Of a stretch of DNA of 53,876 nucleotides, positions 1-53,876 are shown piece by piece (the stretch's first letter is position 1; each line of letters begins with the position of its first letter). Source of the DNA: a bacterium (GTDB lineage Bacteria; Patescibacteriota; Microgenomatia; Daviesbacterales; UBA10151); contig JAJYIE010000004.1 in the NCBI GenBank assembly GCA_021790255.1, positions 1-53,876 of the forward strand, written 5' to 3'. Under the pieces are notes generated by a model, which was not told where the DNA came from, did not search any database, and saw only the letters and a program-made list of their open reading frames with translations. A program made the translations under genes and the position numbers.

Positions 1-77
1 TAAAATCACTTGGCAATTTTCTGCGTTTGTCTCAAATGTGTTTGATCTTTTTCATCAATAGCTACTTATTGTTCAGT

Positions 78-142
78 AATTTGTATAAATGTCATTCTTT
101 TTTCAGCTATGATCATATTGGTGCACCCATAACTAAGTTATG
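78..142 (+). promoter_or_regulatory. Unit-1 promoter/operator: AATTTGTATAAAT (78-90), -10 TATGAT (108-113), palindrome CATAACT-A-AGTTATG (128-142) overlapping the ATG
   Basis: The same three elements recur at 3500-3567, with identical spacing between the 13-mer and the -10. Confidence 0.65.
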
Positions 143-436
143 AAAACAATGCAAGCAAGACTTGAAAAAATAGAAGCTCAGTATAAACAACAAACATATA
201 CCAACGTTGATAGTGCAATGGTTCGGGTATTACGCATGATTATTGACGCATATAGTCAAAAGACATATATACCAAAAGAAGTAGATAAAATAACGCATGA
301 AGAATGGCAACTTGATTGTGAAAAGGAATTACGTTACCAACGCATACATTTTGGAGAACAAGCGGTTGAAGACAGGAAACAAATAAATGATGACTTTGAA
401 GCATATATTACAGAGGTTGGCGGATGGAAGGACTAA
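140..436 (+). CDS. Small hypothetical protein, 'WKD' family (paralog 1)
   Basis: 98-aa ORF with an N-terminal RLEKIE coil, a DKITHEEW motif shared with 3565..3825, and C-terminal GWKD. Confidence 0.75.
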   Translation: MKTMQARLEKIEAQYKQQTYTNVDSAMVRVLRMIIDAYSQKTYIPKEVDKITHEEWQLDCEKELRYQRIHFGEQAVEDRKQINDDFEAYITEVGGWKD

Positions 437-439
437 AGT

Positions 440-760
440 ATGACTATACAAACCAAACTTACAAAACTTGAGATGCAATTACAAGCAAAGTTTTCAGTAG
501 AAAGACCGAGTGAGCAACCAGTTATTCGGCTCTGGTCAGAGCTTATACGAGATGAGGTGCAAGAAGGATTTGGTATAAAAGCAGAGCCAATGCTTGTAGT
601 GCCTGATAATCTAAAAGTTAGGCATGTTGATTGGGAGTACTTTTATAACTCAATTCAGAAACGTAGAGTTGAATTTGGCGAAAAAATCTATAAAGAACAA
701 ATTGACTTTTGTAATGAAATAAAAACAGTGATTGATAGTGCTGAGGGATGGAAGGACTAA
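440..760 (+). CDS. Small hypothetical protein, 'WKD' family (paralog 2)
   Basis: 106-aa ORF starting MTIQTKLTKLE and ending EGWKD, 3 nt after paralog 1. Confidence 0.75.
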   Translation: MTIQTKLTKLEMQLQAKFSVERPSEQPVIRLWSELIRDEVQEGFGIKAEPMLVVPDNLKVRHVDWEYFYNSIQKRRVEFGEKIYKEQIDFCNEIKTVIDSAEGWKD

Positions 761-765
761 TAATC

Positions 766-1353
766 ATGCGGTGTATATTTATCAAGAGAAACAAAGAACA
801 ATGTAGGGCACATAAGATGCTTGACTCCACTTTCTGTTTTAGACACAATCCCAAGCACGTTAAAAAGGTAAAAGAGCTGTTACTCAATGAGACCGATATA
901 CAAGTAAAAGATACATTCAGAGCAGACCTCAAAAAAGACCAAGCAAGTACGATTACAATTAGTGGAGACTTAGACAAGCTCAAAGTGGAGAAAGAAAAGC
1001 ACAGCAAAGCAATTATGAGCTATGAACAATTCCTTGAACTATTTAACGACTTGCCTGATATTATAAGCAAAACGAAGTCTTTGAAAGAGAAAGATTATTT
1101 ACTTGGAAAAACCTACTTGAACTGCGTTGTAAAAGATAAGAAAGTCTTGTCCTGTCAATTAAATCCACCATTCAATAAGTTTGTGAAAAGTGGTGTTTTG
1201 ACATCTAGTCGGATTGCAGAAACCACACTTGAACTATATGATTTTATCATAAACAACTTAGACACGGTAGACAAATTTAACGAGGACGTCAGTTTATATT
1301 TACAGGGTAAAAAGTCTTTTCAGCAGTCACAGTACATGAACGTCATGCTATAA
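766..1353 (+). CDS. Chimeric ORF: Cys/His small-protein N-terminus fused in frame to the serine recombinase C-terminal region
   Basis: The N-terminus MRCIFIKRNKEQCRAH...CFRHNP matches 3832..4188. From LLLNETDIQVK to GVLTSSR it matches the recombinase C-terminus, followed by a 46-aa tail. Confidence 0.7.
   Translation: MRCIFIKRNKEQCRAHKMLDSTFCFRHNPKHVKKVKELLLNETDIQVKDTFRADLKKDQASTITISGDLDKLKVEKEKHSKAIMSYEQFLELFNDLPDIISKTKSLKEKDYLLGKTYLNCVVKDKKVLSCQLNPPFNKFVKSGVLTSSRIAETTLELYDFIINNLDTVDKFNEDVSLYLQGKKSFQQSQYMNVML
883..1212 (+). repeat. Direct repeat copy 1 (recombinase 3' end), ending in core TCTAGTCGG (attP-like junction)
   Basis: Hand alignment with 5531..5859 gives 39 differences in 330 nt (about 88% identity), mostly synonymous. 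Confidence 0.95.
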
Positions 1354-1360
1354 TAAAAAT

Positions 1361-1615
1361 ATGAGCGATAGAACTTTAATTCAAAAATTGAAGGCAGCCA
1401 TTGACTCGGAGAAAAATAGCAGTATCAAAAAGGATAATTTGACAGATGTGGCAAGTCAAATTAGCAATCAACCAAGCACCTCGCAGCCACAGAGCAGTAA
1501 TGCCAGCGATAACAGCAATAATCAACCTCAAAATCTTGGAAATAATCAAGTTGTTGGCGCAGATGGCACAGTTATTGACCTCAACATAGACCAACAAAAC
1601 ACCATTAAAAAGTAA
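1361..1615 (+). CDS. Hypothetical protein with Q/N/S-rich low-complexity linker
   Basis: 84-aa ORF 7 nt after the upstream stop; no recognisable motif. Confidence 0.55.
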   Translation: MSDRTLIQKLKAAIDSEKNSSIKKDNLTDVASQISNQPSTSQPQSSNASDNSNNQPQNLGNNQVVGADGTVIDLNIDQQNTIKK

Positions 1616-1650
1616 TACTTCATCAAGCTGTATTTTATTGAACTATATAG

Positions 1651-3474
1651 TTATTGATATCCTTGTGCTTGGGTGTGAAACATGTGAGCGTATTTGCCGG
1701 CTTTTTTCATTAGTTCTTCATGCGTACCCCTTTCAATAATTTGCCCATCATCAATTACAAAAATCTTATTGGCATTTCTAACGGTTGAAAATCGGTGAGA
1801 GACCAGAACTAATGTTTTGTCTTTGTACGCTTTTTCTAAATTATTAAATATTTCATACTCTGCTTCTGCATCAATGGCGCTTGTTGGCTCATCAAGAATA
1901 AGCAAAGGGGATGATTGATAAAAGGCTCTTGCAATTGCTAATTTTTGCCATTGACCAACAGATAATTCCTCACCATCCTCATATTCCCTGCCCAATATCT
2001 GGTCAAATTTTTTTGGTAGTTTTTCAATAAACTCATATGCACCTGCTTTTTTAGCTGCCTCTTTTATAAGCATTTCATCTTGTTTCGCTGGGTCACCAAG
2101 TACTATATTATCTCGGACAGTCAAGTAATAATGTACAAAATCTTGAAATAATGTACCCATATGCTCGTACCAGTTTGCAAGTTTTATCTCTTTTATATTT
2201 ATGTCATTTATCAGAATTTCGCCCTCAGTTACATCATAAAATCTACAAATGAGTTTAATTATTGTTGATTTACCTGCACCATTTACACCAACAAGAGCAG
2301 CGCTCTCGCCAGATTGCACAATGAAAGATACATTTTTTAATACTTTTTGACCATTTGGGTATTGAAAAGACACATTCTTAAATTCTATTTTTGGTGGATA
2401 AATCTTTTCAAAAATAACGGGATGCGCAGTCTCATTGATTAGTCTTGGTAGTTCTAAAACCTCAAAGTAATGGTCTATGTACAAGTTATGCTCATACATT
2501 TCACCAAAATTAGCAACAGCATTTGCAGCGCTTCCATCTAGTTGGTCAATCATATTGATTAGCAATGTAAAACTACCAATAGTGATTATTCCATTTAAAA
2601 CGTGGGGTAATTGTAGATATGCAATCACAAACAACACAATTGTTTCTAGGATTGGAGGGTACATTAGTTGGCGTAAATAATTATCTAATGGTTTCTTGTT
2701 AAGATTGAATAAATAATCTTGTACTTCTTTGAGCTTAGCAAGAAGCGTTTTTTGTGATTGAAAAATTCTCATTTCTCTTATCGCCTCAGGACTAGCAAGT
2801 AAATAGGTAAGATACCAAATTTTTCTCACCTGCGGTGCGCCCGACCCATAAATTGACCATTGAATTGTGCCATATTTTGCACGCAGGTATAGTCTTGGCA
2901 AGGTTACAATAGTAATTGTTACTGGTATCCACCATCCAAATGGAAGTAATATTATAAAAGCTGCAATATAACCAACAATACTACTGAAAAAGTAAGCAAA
3001 CTGACGTAAAAAATCAGGTGGTCGCCATGTTAGAGTATCACGAGTTTTTGATATAAGATTTTGTGTTTTTGGGTTTTCTAAGTGGGCAATATCTAATTGC
3101 GATAATTTATCATAAAAACGTCTATTTAATTCATTTTGAATTGTGTAACGAAAAAGATAGTCAAAATAAACAATATGAAGCCCCCACTGGACAATGCTTT
3201 CAGCAAGATTGAGTACATAGCGAGTAGCAAGGATAGCAATAACTACCAGAGGTACAGTAACAATACCAGAAGCCAAATGATTACCAAGTAAACTATCAAT
3301 GAGGTATTTCAGTGTTAAACTTGCAATCAAGGGCGCTAAAGCGCCTATCATTGCAGTAAAATAATAACCAAAGGTTACTCTTTTATCCATTTCCCACGAC
3401 AACAAGAGCATTTTTCTTAGATTGGTTAAAACATGTTTCAGTTGTTGCAATGAAGTTTGTACTTTCATACACAC
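1651..3474 (-). CDS. ABC exporter, fused permease/ATP-binding (MsbA/MdlB-like)
   Basis: N-terminal TM helices; Walker A GVNGAGKST; signature LSVGQWQK; Walker B LILDEP; H-loop SHR. Confidence 0.92.
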   Translation of the reverse strand: MCMKVQTSLQQLKHVLTNLRKMLLLSWEMDKRVTFGYYFTAMIGALAPLIASLTLKYLIDSLLGNHLASGIVTVPLVVIAILATRYVLNLAESIVQWGLHIVYFDYLFRYTIQNELNRRFYDKLSQLDIAHLENPKTQNLISKTRDTLTWRPPDFLRQFAYFFSSIVGYIAAFIILLPFGWWIPVTITIVTLPRLYLRAKYGTIQWSIYGSGAPQVRKIWYLTYLLASPEAIREMRIFQSQKTLLAKLKEVQDYLFNLNKKPLDNYLRQLMYPPILETIVLFVIAYLQLPHVLNGIITIGSFTLLINMIDQLDGSAANAVANFGEMYEHNLYIDHYFEVLELPRLINETAHPVIFEKIYPPKIEFKNVSFQYPNGQKVLKNVSFIVQSGESAALVGVNGAGKSTIIKLICRFYDVTEGEILINDINIKEIKLANWYEHMGTLFQDFVHYYLTVRDNIVLGDPAKQDEMLIKEAAKKAGAYEFIEKLPKKFDQILGREYEDGEELSVGQWQKLAIARAFYQSSPLLILDEPTSAIDAEAEYEIFNNLEKAYKDKTLVLVSHRFSTVRNANKIFVIDDGQIIERGTHEELMKKAGKYAHMFHTQAQGYQ

Positions 3475-3499
3475 AATTGTATCAGATTTTATTTGTCTA

Positions 3500-3567
3500 A
3501 ATTTGTATAAATAATCTCTTTTTGACCCCTATAATTAAATAGGGATACCCCCCATAACTAAGTTATG
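3500..3567 (+). promoter_or_regulatory. Unit-2 promoter/operator: AATTTGTATAAAT (3500-3512), -10 TATAAT (3530-3535), palindrome CATAACT-A-AGTTATG (3553-3567)
   Basis: The 13-mer and the 15-bp palindrome are exact repeats of those at 78-142. Confidence 0.65.
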
Positions 3568-3825
3568 ACATTGCAAAATAAAATCACAAACCTAGAAAAA
3601 TATGTTAGAGCAAGAACACCTCAGCCGAGGGATATTCTTACAAGAGTAACTCGCATTGTAATTGCTGTAGGCGAGTCACACAGTCCCGGCAGAACTCTTG
3701 AGCCGATAGACGAGATTGACAAAATTACCCACGCAGAGTGGTATGAGTTCACGAATAAACATCCAGACTGGAAAGACCCTTATTACATAACAGAATTTGA
3801 CGAAGCCTTGGCATGGAAAGACTAA
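3565..3825 (+). CDS. Small hypothetical protein, 'WKD' family (paralog 3)
   Basis: 86 aa; MTLQNKITNLEK..., DKITHAEW, ends AWKD. Confidence 0.75.
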   Translation: MTLQNKITNLEKYVRARTPQPRDILTRVTRIVIAVGESHSPGRTLEPIDEIDKITHAEWYEFTNKHPDWKDPYYITEFDEALAWKD

Positions 3826-3831
3826 TAAAGT

Positions 3832-4188
3832 ATGCAATGTAAATTTATAAGAAAAAACAAACAGCAATGCAAGGCGCATAGCATGAGAAGTACTAAACTT
3901 TGCTTCAGGCACAGCCCTGACCACGCTAAACAAGCCTTAAAAGCCTCGCAAGCCGGCGGGACAAACAGAAGCCCGTCTGTTGCCTTTCAAGAAGAAATTA
4001 CTCTCAATAATACAAGAGATATCCAAAAACTGATAGGTAAGGTCATCAATGGTGTTTGGCAAGGAAAAGTACCAATCAAAGTTGGCTCAACCGTTGGTTT
4101 TCTTACTCGTTGCTGGCTTGATGCCTATGAGAAATCAGAGCTTGAAAGACGAGTTGAAGAACTTGAGAAGAAAATAACAGCATTGTAA
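3832..4188 (+). CDS. Small protein with C-x9-C-x10-C-x2-H putative Zn motif and C-terminal coiled coil
   Basis: 118 aa; the Cys/His pattern is conserved in the 766 copy; ends ELERRVEELEKK. Confidence 0.7.
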   Translation: MQCKFIRKNKQQCKAHSMRSTKLCFRHSPDHAKQALKASQAGGTNRSPSVAFQEEITLNNTRDIQKLIGKVINGVWQGKVPIKVGSTVGFLTRCWLDAYEKSELERRVEELEKKITAL

Positions 4189-4228
4189 TTATACTGCCTT
4201 GAGCTTTCTTAACCTGTATAATCAAAGC

Positions 4229-5874
4229 ATGCAATATACAACACAAGATTTAGTTGGCTTCCTCAAAACTCTTAACACTGCGGATGATGAAAAAGATAAT
4301 GCAACAAGTATCAAATACGTGATTTATGCCAGAAAATCCACAGAAAGTGAAGAACGACAGGTACGTTCACTTGGCGACCAAGTAACAGAGTGCAGAAAAA
4401 TAGTACAAGACAGAGAGCTACAGGTAATTTCAACCCCTATTACTGAGTCAGAAAGTGCGAAAGAGCCAGATATTAGACCAAGATTTAGGCAGATGATTGA
4501 CGACATAAAAGGTGGCAAATACGGTGGCATTATTGCGTGGCACCCGGACAGACTTGCACGCAATATGAAAGATGCAGGTGAAATTATTGACCTCTTGGAT
4601 AAAAAAATTATCAAAGACTTACAGTTTGTGAGCTTCACTTTCCAAAACAATACCGCAGGCAAAATGCTTTTAGGAATAGCATTTGTTTTGTCAAAACAGT
4701 ATTCAGACCAGCTAAGCGATAATGTGCTTCGTGGTAATAGGAGAAGCATTGAGGAAGGAAAATATATCAATAAAACTAAGCACGGTTATTTCAAAGACGT
4801 AAACCAATACTTACGACCAGACGGAGATAATTTCTTACTCATAAAACAGGCATGGAAAATGAGACTTGAGAATAAACAGCTTGAGGAAATTGCATCGTTT
4901 CTCAATACCAATCACTACAGCAGACCGACAAGCGTTGGTGGTAACACCCACGAGCAATACACCATAGACGTGAAGCGTGTATCAGAGATTTTACGTGACT
5001 CTATTTACTGTGGTGTCTTGTTATTTGGGGAAAAGGAGAAAAAGATAGTTGATTTGACACAGATATATGATTTTATACCAATGGTTACAGTTGATGAGTT
5101 TCTCAAAATAAATAAAATCACCAGCATTGATAAGTTTTTCAAACAGCGTTTCAAAGTGGAAAAAGAGGGAAGCATAAGAGCTGATTTATTGCGGGGCAAA
5201 GTCATTTGTGGCTATTGTAACCACCCAATGGTATCTGCAATCTCAAACAAAATGAATAAAAAAGGACTAACACACTATTACAACTATCGCTGTGATAATA
5301 AAAGCTGTAAAGCAAAGGCAAAGGCAATAAGAGCGCATGTTGTAGTGGATTACTGTATTGATTTTCTGCGACAACACAAATTTAACACGAGGGATGTCTA
5401 CGACCATTATGTAGCAGAAATGAAACGTGTTATTGCAAACCAAGAGCAAATACTTGAGACACAACGGCATACACTCACAAAAGCAAAAATTGATACTGAA
5501 GACAAAGTAGATAAAATAAAAGACTTGCTGCTCAATGAGACAGATATACAAGTAAAGACACATTCAGAGCAGACCTCAAAAAAGACCAAGCAAGCATTGT
5601 TACAATCAGTGAGGACTTGGACAAGCTAAAAGAAGAAAAAGAAAAGCACAAAAAGGCAATCTTGAGCTACGAGCAATTCCTTGAACTGTTTAACGATTTG
5701 CCCGATATAATAAGCAAAACCAAGAGTTTAAAAGAAAAAGATTATTTACTTGGAAAAATATACTTGAACTGCGTTATAAAAGATAAGAAAGTATTGTCCT
5801 GTCAATTAAATCCACCATTCAACAAGTTTGTGAAACATGGTGTTTTGACGTCTAGTCGGGGTGGGGAGAATTGA
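4229..5874 (+). CDS. Large serine recombinase (resolvase + recombinase + Zn-ribbon + coiled coil), with a 1-nt frameshift at about 5554-5556
   Basis: YARKST catalytic motif, AWHPDRLARN, CGYC...YRCDNKSC. Restoring one A (as in copy 906-909) joins ORFs 4199..5629 and 5617..5874 into about 548 aa. Confidence 0.9.
5531..5859 (+). repeat. Direct repeat copy 2, ending in core TCTAGTCGG at the tRNA 3' end (att junction)
   Basis: See copy 1; the last 4 nt overlap the tRNA discriminator and acceptor stem. Confidence 0.95.
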
Positions 5875-5927
5875 ACTCCCTACATCCGGACCCCCAGCCC
5901 GGCGTTCTGCCGATGAACTACACCCCG
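5856..5927 (-). tRNA. tRNA-Pro(GGG), CCA not encoded
   Basis: Cloverleaf: acceptor CGGGGTG/CACCCCG, D-stem GTTC/GAAC, anticodon stem CCGGG/TCCGG with loop CTGGGGG, T-arm GGGAG-TTCAATT-CTCCC. Confidence 0.95.
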
Positions 5928-5999
5928 AAGTTCGGACTATTTCTGAACATATCTTCTACCAGCTATCAGGTACAAGAATAATTGCACTTTAACATTTTA

Positions 6000-6155
6000 T
6001 CAAAAAACGAACATCTTATTAAATAAGCGTGTTAAATAAAACTCCGGATCCTTTTCTACCACCGAAACCTGCAGCTTTGTCCCGGCCAGATTTTTTGCCG
6101 CTTCCAGCCCGGCAATGCTGGCGCCGACAATAAGGACATCATAGAAACATTTCAT
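6000..6155 (-). pseudogene. N-terminal fragment of an FAD-dependent oxidoreductase (51 aa)
   Basis: Hand translation MKCFYDVLIVGASIAGLEAAKNLAGTKLQVSVVEK... is a Rossmann beta-alpha-beta unit. It has an AGAGGAGG SD and stops after 51 aa. Confidence 0.7.
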
Positions 6156-6200
6156 GACAACCTCCTCTGTATATTAAAATAGTTTGCAAAAACAGAAAAG

Positions 6201-53744: not shown

Positions 53745-53876
53745 GAGGGTGTCCTGGATCAGTACTTTTGAGATAACCCTCCTTTCTTTAAGTACCGGTA
53801 AGGTGACAGATAGTTTAATGACTGGTGTGGTCTTTGTTCATTGTACCAGAGTAACCAGGAAGTAAGCTCTTTTTTA

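Follow-up and report, generated by a model that had tools for sequence, protein, structure and literature searches.

What occupies the beginning of a contig from a small Patescibacteriota genome, where several short genes precede a recombinase gene, and what might those short genes do? The window analyzed here, 53,876 nt long, is the start of contig C45 (JAJYIE010000004.1) of a Daviesbacterales genome of the class Microgenomatia (GCA_021790255.1; 941 kb in 45 contigs, 92% complete). Its first kilobases contain open reading frames (ORFs) whose products end in WKD, a gene for a small protein with the pattern C-x9-C-x10-C-x2-H (hereafter the Cys/His protein), and a gene for a large serine recombinase. 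We found that bases 1–5859 are low-GC foreign DNA consisting of two tandem, related integrative elements (elements A and B) at the 3′ end of a tRNA-Pro(GGG) gene, and that a leader of approximately 25 nt, one or more small ORFs, and the Cys/His gene form a conserved module of recombinase-borne, tRNA-targeting elements in this bacterial class. A preliminary description of the window had proposed the core module of an uncharacterized small integrative element or phage satellite. The first part of this proposal was borne out by the low GC content, the abutment on tRNA-Pro, a left junction beside recA, and the co-occurrence of the module with recombinases, whereas the satellite part was not, with no relatives in viral or phage records and no packaging genes in the loci scanned.

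GC content was 34–39% from position 1 to approximately 5860 and 44–50% in the remaining window, with the shift at 5860. The only tRNA gene of the window, tRNA-Pro(GGG) (5855–5927, minus strand), shares its last 5 nt (GTCGG on the plus strand) with the element end and is therefore the integration target; an Rfam scan of positions 1–6200 detected this tRNA only. A direct repeat of 340 nt (869–1206 and 5517–5853; 88% identical, spacing 4647) corresponds to the 3′ end of the recombinase gene, and both copies finish in ...TCTAGTCGG. After 5859 the sequence continues into the tRNA, while after 1212 it continues into ATTGCAGAAACCACACTTGAAC; since a common end is followed by different continuations, 1212/1213 is the right end of one element joined to the left end of the next. 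This attP-like A/B junction (1204–1235, plus strand) reads ...TCTAGTCGG followed by ATTGCAGAAACCACACTTGAAC, and its identity to the tRNA-side junction stops at GTCGG. From the repeat spacing and the composition, element B spans 1213–5859 on the plus strand (4647 bp, GC 34–39%). An inverted-repeat search with a 6-nt seed at both attachment (att) junctions found none. The named relatives of the element genes were from Microgenomates and Daviesbacteria, and related pieces of element B, approximately 85–96% alike, were present in contigs of three other metagenome runs.

The right half of the A/B junction recurs, 85% identical, on contig C4 of the same genome, behind ...ACTCAGTCGG and beside recA. 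C4 ends in a multi-copy repeat end (rep2); the 73 nt immediately before it match the left end of element B at 85% identity, and before those stand ...ACTCAGTCGG and the recA upstream region. The left junction is 150 nt from recA. GTCGG occurs at 1208–1212, at 5855–5859, and on C4, so that the element end is repeated at the far junction. The genes for recA, tRNA-Pro(ggg), and enolase adjoin in all four relatives fetched, and the enolase gene flanks the tRNA of the window. In one relative (G420), only 355 nt, free of element genes, separate tRNA-Pro(ggg) from recA; the spacer includes approximately 250 nt that are not in the host genome (G000). The likely order, taken from synteny and not from the assembly, is recA, left junction, (insertion sequence), element A, element B, and tRNA-Pro. 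Across relatives, among them L060 (G424), L061 (G410), and L063 (G088), the recA–tRNA-Pro–enolase interval ranged from 0.35 to more than 10 kb and contained unrelated genes, one of which, in G424, encodes a secreted-looking protein of 468 aa; this locus may generally be a hot spot for insertions.

Each element is ordered as left end, (cargo), promoter-like box, leader of approximately 25 nt, WKD gene or genes, Cys/His gene, and a large serine recombinase gene crossing the att site. The preliminary description had already read each unit as WKD, Cys/His, and recombinase genes, which held for the second unit, albeit with a frameshifted recombinase, and failed for the first. In element A, the ORF at 766–1353 (plus strand) is a deletion fusion of Cys/His codons 1–35 (766–870), the last ~115 recombinase codons (869–1212), and a 46-codon tail in the left end of element B (1213–1353). 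It matched the Cys/His family over residues 1–35 only, and the protein encoded by its segment 859–1212 was 92% identical to residues 435–552 of the intact 570-aa recombinase of a related locus (L065). Because the Cys/His start runs directly into recombinase residues ~435–552, element A has lost approximately 2 kb between the two genes; the ORF is an in-frame internal-deletion remnant, and element A has no intact recombinase.

The recombinase gene of element B contains the domains PF00239 Resolvase (E 4.9e-21, residues 41–189), PF07508 Recombinase (E 7e-8), and PF13408 Zn_ribbon_recom (E 5e-7), and it matched the integrase family phrog_95 (E 2e-56). Its first frame (4199–5629, plus strand) ends prematurely at 476 aa after a −1 frameshift in an A-run at 5553–5557, which reads GTAAAG in element B and GTAAAAG in the element A copy; the C-terminal part continues in the shifted frame (5557–5874, plus strand) and reads into the tRNA. 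A tblastn search with the 570-aa L065 recombinase placed the frame switch at ~5553–5557. Contigs from the three other metagenome runs had one extra base behind 5553, and a possible source run of the host genome agreed with the window. An intact recombinase ORF of ~500–600 aa was thus found in neither element, that of element B being frameshifted and the element A copy lacking codons 1 to ~434. With a ~2-kb internal deletion and an insertion-sequence-like insertion in element A and the recombinase frameshift in element B, both copies are decayed and probably immobile.

Past the att site, the recombinase ORF runs on for four codons at the tRNA and for 46 at the tandem junction, where it enters the left end of the next element. 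The ORF spans its own att site, and integration therefore exchanges its last ~46 codons for four. Among 19 related loci with room for the comparison, the recombinase stop lay within an opposite-strand tRNA in nine under a strict window and in four more, the analyzed window included, under a looser one. The target tRNAs in related loci were of at least ten different kinds (Pro, Arg, His, Met, Leu, Gln, Glu, Asn, Tyr, and Lys). The host genome contains three more large serine recombinase genes (L053–L059), at C21:1–1651, C3:~28–31 kb, and C41:~12.5–14.6 kb; the first terminates within an opposite-strand tRNA-His in the same layout as in the window, and tRNA-Gln and tRNA-Leu lie near those on C3 and C41.

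The wider distribution of the module was examined in 76 assembled loci, including 66 distinct ones with a full-length Cys/His gene. Sampling of 400 other genomes from the class recovered the Cys/His gene in 16, from at least nine taxonomic families, and such a patchy spread is what a mobile gene would be expected to show. Of 23 loci with at least 4.5 kb of downstream sequence, 16 had a large serine recombinase gene downstream in the same orientation; of 18 loci with both flanks of at least 5 kb, 16 had one no farther than 6 kb away in either direction, L030 and L089 being the exceptions. Homologues were therefore not scattered without a link to recombinases or tRNAs, the outcome that would have told against the preliminary description. 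In L030, a tyrosine integrase gene (PF00589; L030:4284–5264) stands directly downstream of the Cys/His gene in place of the serine recombinase gene, and the leader motif is degenerate. Larger relatives carry upstream genes for Prim-Pol/DUF3987, Toprim/DUF3631, CHC2-primase, and DnaB-like or phage Rep-O proteins. Terminase, capsid, portal, and conjugation families were absent among 79 Pfam-scanned and 16 PHROG-scanned neighbours, save for one HerA/TrwB-like ATPase in L034. Pfam and PHROG scans of the element in the window likewise gave no replication, capsid, or conjugation family match, in agreement with the initial reading of its gene content.

Two further protein groups were seen near the module in other loci. 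In a divergent branch that lacks the leader motif, acidic helical proteins of 478–580 aa are encoded directly after the Cys/His gene (L036:3963–5408, L037:6227–7966, L039:6299–7822, and L042:6540–7973), with no Pfam or PHROG match. Proteins of 180–187 aa encoded just upstream of the module (L032:9087–9626 and L037:8471–9031) matched phrog_8542, a family of unknown function, with E ~1e-13; they follow CHC2-primase and an uncharacterized protein of 475–566 aa and may be part of a replication module.

The most conserved component of the module was not a protein. An exact 18-nt repeat before the first and third WKD genes (3551–3568 in element B) is part of the ~25-nt leader, whose consensus is GGTACCCCC-ATAACTAAGTT-ATG, i.e. 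GG(G)TA(T)ACCCC(C)-(C/T)ATAACTAAGTT-ATG. In element A, the leader motif CCCATAACTAAGTTATG (126–142, plus strand) includes the start codon of the first WKD gene. In element B, GGGATACCCCCCATAACTAAGTTATG (3542–3567, plus strand) has a palindrome-like GC part and, after it, the 7-1-7 palindrome CATAACTaAGTTATG, within which the start codon of the third WKD gene is included. When no more than one mismatch was allowed and a start codon had to follow, the leader core TAACTAAGTT was present in 38 of 58 assessable distinct loci and in 39 distinct versions. It always immediately precedes the first ATG of the module, whether that of a small ORF or of the Cys/His gene, with a spacing of 0–6 nt in the 39 distinct sequences and always on the coding strand. 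The leader was exact between elements whose synonymous sites were at a dS of 0.75 or saturated, and it is more conserved than any protein of the module. Its presence tracked Cys/His similarity (30 of 39 loci of the RCWLDA type, 8 of 19 others, and none of the seven most divergent), a trend that is confounded with relatedness. Both leader palindromes have centres of 0–2 nt, which is too short for a hairpin loop and thus fits double-stranded DNA read by a dimer.

Upstream of the leader, a promoter-like TTTGTATAAAT box occurs in element A (79–90, plus strand) and in element B (3502–3512, plus strand), and the same box stands upstream of the module in L064, L066, and L029. A scan for consensus promoters and terminators was not enriched over shuffled sequences and missed this conserved TTTGTATAAAT box. 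Across the whole host genome, TAACTAAGTT was found solely at the two element sites, and we rejected a host-regulon reading (e.g., an SOS box) on this ground. Searches of IMG/VR returned four exact leader matches, none beside a Cys/His gene. The small, related IMG/VR viral contigs L121, L123, and L124 contain the exact 18-nt pattern followed by GGAGGG, with the palindrome extended to CCCCATAAC-TAA-GTTATGGxGGG and no Cys/His, WKD, or recombinase gene close by; this pattern may be due to chance or to an unrelated hairpin.

The Cys/His gene of element B (3832–4188, plus strand) encodes 118 aa, with an N-terminal C-x9-C-x10-C-x2-H zinc knuckle, three helices, and a C-terminal coiled-coil-like helix (RVEELEKKI). 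We found 35 homologues of 101–127 aa; in the 33 that were aligned, the ligands C3-x9-C13-x10-C24-x2-H27 were invariant or at least 90% conserved, and the GFLTRCWLDAYE helix was also conserved. The structural model had a zinc knuckle with a predicted local distance difference test score (pLDDT) of 90, three helices, and a long C-terminal helix, with an overall predicted template modeling score (pTM) of 0.35. In hmmscan with the 33 members at E≤1, six matched zf-C3Hc3H (best 0.0067), five the TRM13 CCCH finger, and four DUF5763 (best 6.6e-5), all below threshold, and residues 57–114 weakly matched phrog_9747, of unknown function (E 7.7e-5). The best BFVD row for the model was an unnamed 171-aa protein (E 9e-3), profile searches of PDB gave nothing under E 0.19, and an ESM Atlas search returned only unnamed clusters with scores of 0.89–0.92. 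Among 8000 candidates scored, no longer or fused forms were found, which is weak evidence, and no relatives were detected in IMG/VR (2.9 million contigs) or among 50,697 phage records. The loose resemblance to small-terminase (TerS) proteins suggested earlier found no support in these comparisons: fold searches gave nothing clear, and the N-terminus is a zinc knuckle rather than a helix-turn-helix.

The three WKD ORFs encode proteins of 98 aa (WKD1; 140–436), 106 aa (WKD2; 440–760), and 86 aa (WKD3; 3565–3825), all on the plus strand and ending in GWKD, GWKD, and AWKD, respectively. Pairwise BLASTP E-values were 1e-5, 7e-6, and 4e-4, and two of the ORFs contain DKITHEEW or DKITHAEW, the shared DKITHxEW already pointed out in the preliminary description. 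An exhaustive search of 1.84 billion proteins with a six-member WKD profile yielded eight representative clusters at E≤1e-3, and these form three subtypes that match WKD1, WKD2, and WKD3. Together with the common endings, these sequence comparisons uphold the proposal that the WKD ORFs are true paralogs, and they belong to a very rare family. WKD genes stand directly upstream of the Cys/His gene in L064 (an orthologue of WKD3) and in L065 and L066 (orthologues of WKD2), where the Cys/His proteins are 67–83% identical to that of the window. Weak matches occurred in L103 and L075, with no others among the 76 loci, and profile iteration across the 2787 ORFs of these loci brought no gain after round 1. 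The strict WKD family is limited to the closest relatives of the element, and only the N-terminal helix motif is general.

The ratio of nonsynonymous to synonymous substitution rates (dN/dS) was 0.14 for WKD2 versus L065, 0.34 for WKD3 versus L064, and 0.11 for the Cys/His gene versus L064. As judged from these sequence ratios of 0.11–0.34, the WKD and Cys/His genes are under purifying selection. The AlphaFold model of the WKD family (pLDDT 88, pTM 0.69) comprised a three-helix bundle (residues 25–94) and a less confident N-terminal helix (residues 4–19); compared with 48,161 chains, it reached a best Z of 5.5 against generic helical bundles only, with no informative structural neighbour. A reading of the small ORFs as leader peptides of ribosomally synthesized and post-translationally modified peptides was rejected, as the WKD model is a confident helical bundle and an ABC transporter was present in only two loci.

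The small ORFs beside the Cys/His gene are of several unrelated-looking types (WKD, PI[LM]GG, GKYY..KDG, and others), all of which start with M-x(2-5)-[RK]-[IL]-x-x-[IL]-E-[KA]-K-[ILV]. This helix expression matched 30 of 76 ORFs adjacent to the Cys/His gene and 16 of 1642 others, 15 of the latter being second neighbours in the same cluster, and many adjacent ORFs missed by the expression showed the motif by eye. Of 66 Cys/His proteins, 32 contained the same nine-residue pattern (R-[ILV]-x-x-[IL]-E-x-K-[ILV]) within their final 32 residues, compared with 1.3% of control windows. Because the helix expression and the Cys/His pattern were defined after the data had been seen, these enrichment figures are descriptive only.

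Given a zinc-knuckle protein, a conserved site in front of the operon, and small proteins that share a helix with it, we propose that the Cys/His protein may be the nucleic-acid-binding regulator of the module, acting at the leader with the small proteins as partners, a reading to which we assign slightly less than an even chance. The C-terminal helix of the Cys/His protein would mediate dimerization, and the dimer would bind the palindromic leader (an GGGTACCC-like part together with CATAACTaAGTTATG), which is situated behind the promoter box and ahead of the first start codon. Binding would set the expression of the operon, of which the recombinase gene is the direct continuation in minimal elements. 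The small proteins, those of the WKD type and of the others, would dock through their N-terminal helix on the like helix at the Cys/His C-terminus and serve as co-regulators or anti-regulators. A more elaborate version, which we regard as possible but doubtful, is a putative self-contained switch peculiar to mobile elements of the Candidate Phyla Radiation (CPR): a dimer of a C3H finger resembling the plant WRC domain, a nearly invariant operator of two palindromes that is joined to the operon's initial start codon, and interchangeable helix-sharing small proteins (WKD, PILGG-type, and GKYY-type) that compete for or join the zinc-finger protein would together decide the expression of recombinase and replication genes.

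Several observations weigh against a regulator acting at the leader. The leader motif is missing from 20 of the 58 assessable loci, the core variants AACTAACTT and GTTGT disrupt the palindrome, and the promoter box is not a consensus sigma-70 match. The fixed contact between leader and ATG would fit control at the RNA or translation level equally well. No curated family, DNA-binding families included, matched the Cys/His protein above threshold in Pfam or PHROG; the Pfam WRC model (PF08879) was unmatched in the 33 members at E≤1, and Foldseek searches of PDB and BFVD with the Cys/His model returned no structure at E≤0.001. The helix expression and the leader core were both set post hoc on the same loci, which inflates the enrichments, and related loci are not independent. 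As to the elements themselves, the physical link from C4 through the insertion sequence to C45 was inferred via synteny and not assembled.

An alternative is that the Cys/His protein, alone or with WKD, is a recombination directionality factor that binds the recombinase and switches it from integration to excision. The 4.6-kb element B carries, besides its cargo and the recombinase gene, only WKD3, the Cys/His gene, and an 84-aa ORF (ORF84), so that any excision factor must be one of these. The Cys/His gene lies 11–250 nt upstream of the recombinase gene in the window, L065, L109, L075, L032, L098, and L112, the two co-occur in 16 of the 18 fully flanked loci, and to our knowledge the known directionality factors of large serine recombinases are small and without a common fold. 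However, L030 has a tyrosine integrase gene directly downstream of the Cys/His gene, 1–4 kb of other genes separate the Cys/His and recombinase genes in many loci, and the recombinase gene is upstream in several (L005, L076, and L086). The same Cys/His protein is moreover kept alongside recombinases for at least ten different tRNAs, and the leader motif and zinc finger point to nucleic-acid recognition; on balance we judge a directionality factor unlikely. The leader could instead be an RNA-level element with the Cys/His protein as a translational autoregulator, CCCH fingers often being RNA-binding, or a Shine-Dalgarno-independent start signal that requires no element protein. The strict contact with or inclusion of the start codon (0–6 nt, always on the coding strand, in 39 distinct sequences), the absence of a visible purine-rich ribosome-binding site between leader and ATG, and the sub-threshold TRM13 CCCH finger matches would suit such a role, whereas palindrome centres of 0–2 nt make hairpin loops impossible, no Rfam family matched, and the leader variants fail to keep pairing, which makes this reading decidedly unlikely.

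Two other functions appear more improbable still. One is a role of the module in replication, with the Cys/His protein as an accessory to an initiator, bound to an origin at the leader, as might be expected from larger relatives in which the module is directly downstream of Prim-Pol/DUF3987, Toprim/DUF3631, CHC2-primase, or DnaB-like genes; yet the element of the window and the minimal elements L065, L075, and L109 retain the module without any replication gene, and there were no iterons, no AT-rich unwinding region, and only a single copy of the motif, and we consider this role highly improbable. Ranked last, with a very small probability, is a TerS-like or other packaging or transfer recognition protein, with the leader as a pac- or ori-like site and the element as a phage satellite or mobilizable element. 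The predicted layout of an N-terminal DNA-binding part followed by helical oligomerization parts, a conserved cis site beside the Cys/His gene, the weak phrog_9747 match, and the partly viral nearest ESM Atlas clusters, which are leads only, would be compatible with it. Against packaging stand the lack of relatives in IMG/VR or phage records, of terminase, capsid, and portal genes among the 79 and 16 scanned neighbours, and of a TerS fold match in PDB or BFVD, and the strict contact of the motif with the ATG, which would be unexpected for a pac site.

The proposed regulator has a possible counterpart in plants. The WRC finger of growth-regulating factors (GRFs) is a CX9CX10CX2H zinc finger that binds double-stranded DNA (bioRxiv 10.1101/2025.01.03.631214). 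The Cys/His protein resembles this finger in its identical C-x9-C-x10-C-x2-H spacing, in being a small finger poor in secondary structure, and in a pattern of basic or aromatic residues around the third Cys (FCFRH in the Cys/His protein). The WRC consensus has Trp-Arg ahead of the second Cys. The alignment of the Cys/His family instead has Q-Q-C or x-x-C at that place, with no W-R and no Pfam WRC match, and the Cys/His protein comes from a bacterial mobile element and has a helical, coiled-coil C-terminal part. The likeness is offered as a functional analogy rather than as membership, and it may be convergent.

In architecture, the elements are closest to tycheposons and cryptic tRNA-integrating elements and to phage-type serine-integrase systems. 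The former, described in Prochlorococcus, are small and site-specific and consist of an integrase, small excision or regulatory genes, an optional primase or helicase, and cargo (bioRxiv 10.1101/2020.12.28.424599). Tycheposons share with the present elements the integration into tRNA genes, the modular build, tandem junctions, and decayed remnants at the same site, but a large serine recombinase occurs in a minority of them and in nearly all of the present loci. The present elements also differ in host phylum (CPR, Microgenomates) and in that no packaging genes were found, and the parts of that work consulted do not describe the Cys/His gene, the shared-helix small ORFs, or the leader motif for tycheposons.

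The phiC31, Bxb1, and TP901-1 systems resemble element B in the order of the Resolvase, Recombinase, and Zn-ribbon domains and in the minimal identity between element and target, which is 5 nt (GTCGG) in element B. Phage-type large serine integrases of this kind require a separate small factor for excision. Unlike these systems, element B is 4.6 kb long, has no phage genes, and carries a recombinase ORF that spans the att site. In SSV1-type integrases of archaeal viruses, which are tyrosine recombinases, the att site is inside the gene and integration splits the ORF into two large parts. The present recombinase likewise has its crossover within the integrase ORF, which is hence altered on integration, but it is a serine enzyme and only its extreme C-terminal tail is exchanged. 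In a literature search, with supplements outside its scope, neither the Cys/His family nor the shared-helix small ORFs nor the leader was found to have been described, and the papers found on serine recombinases in CPR concern inoviruses, none of them describing the module. What is new is an undescribed conserved module, matching no curated family, on a known kind of element.

The remaining features of the region belong to the cargo of element B and to an insertion sequence. Between the two units, and both part of element B, are genes for an ATP-binding cassette (ABC) exporter and for ORF84. The exporter (1651–3474, minus strand; 607 aa, permease plus ATPase; PF00005, E 7e-32) is a low-GC cargo gene whose product is just 36% identical to its host paralog on C38. 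ORF84 (1361–1615, plus strand; 84 aa) is a low-complexity, Q/N/S-rich protein with no family match in Pfam or PHROG scans. It has its own TG-n-TATAAT box at 1343–1354, the best sigma-70-like box of the region, ~7 nt ahead of the ATG, and its N-terminus (RTLIQKLKAAI) is loosely like the shared helix motif.

The left edge of the window is a contig end inside a multi-copy repeat. The end of this insertion-sequence-like repeat (rep1; 1–54) breaks the assembly and interrupts element A, and its 54 nt, plus up to 73 further outward bases, were found at 10 contig ends of the host genome. The second repeat end, rep2, was seen at eight contig ends. The two flank many contigs (in the window, 1–54 and 53750–53876), and C12, C43, and C45 have one repeat end on either side. 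Probably, rep1 and rep2 represent one multi-copy insertion sequence whose interior was not assembled with its flanks and which is the main cause of the assembly fragmentation. A joint from 54 to 5986 in the sequencing-run contigs was disregarded, as one of its sides comprised just 21 nt.

CPR bacteria (Patescibacteria) have tiny genomes and are mostly uncultured, and the control of their mobile elements is almost unstudied. The present analysis defines a family of small tRNA-targeting serine-recombinase elements together with a three-part module of a cis signal, a zinc-finger protein, and helix-sharing small proteins. The leader of ~25 nt provides a simple sequence tag for finding such elements in metagenomes, and the compact layout of a recombinase ORF that spans its own att site, combined with at least ten tRNA targets, may be of interest for integrase tool discovery. 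The module also offers a hypothesis that can be tested at the bench, with a regulator, an operator, and partner helices. If true, the proposed switch would establish a regulator-operator pair of a new class and give the integrative elements of CPR bacteria their first described regulatory logic.

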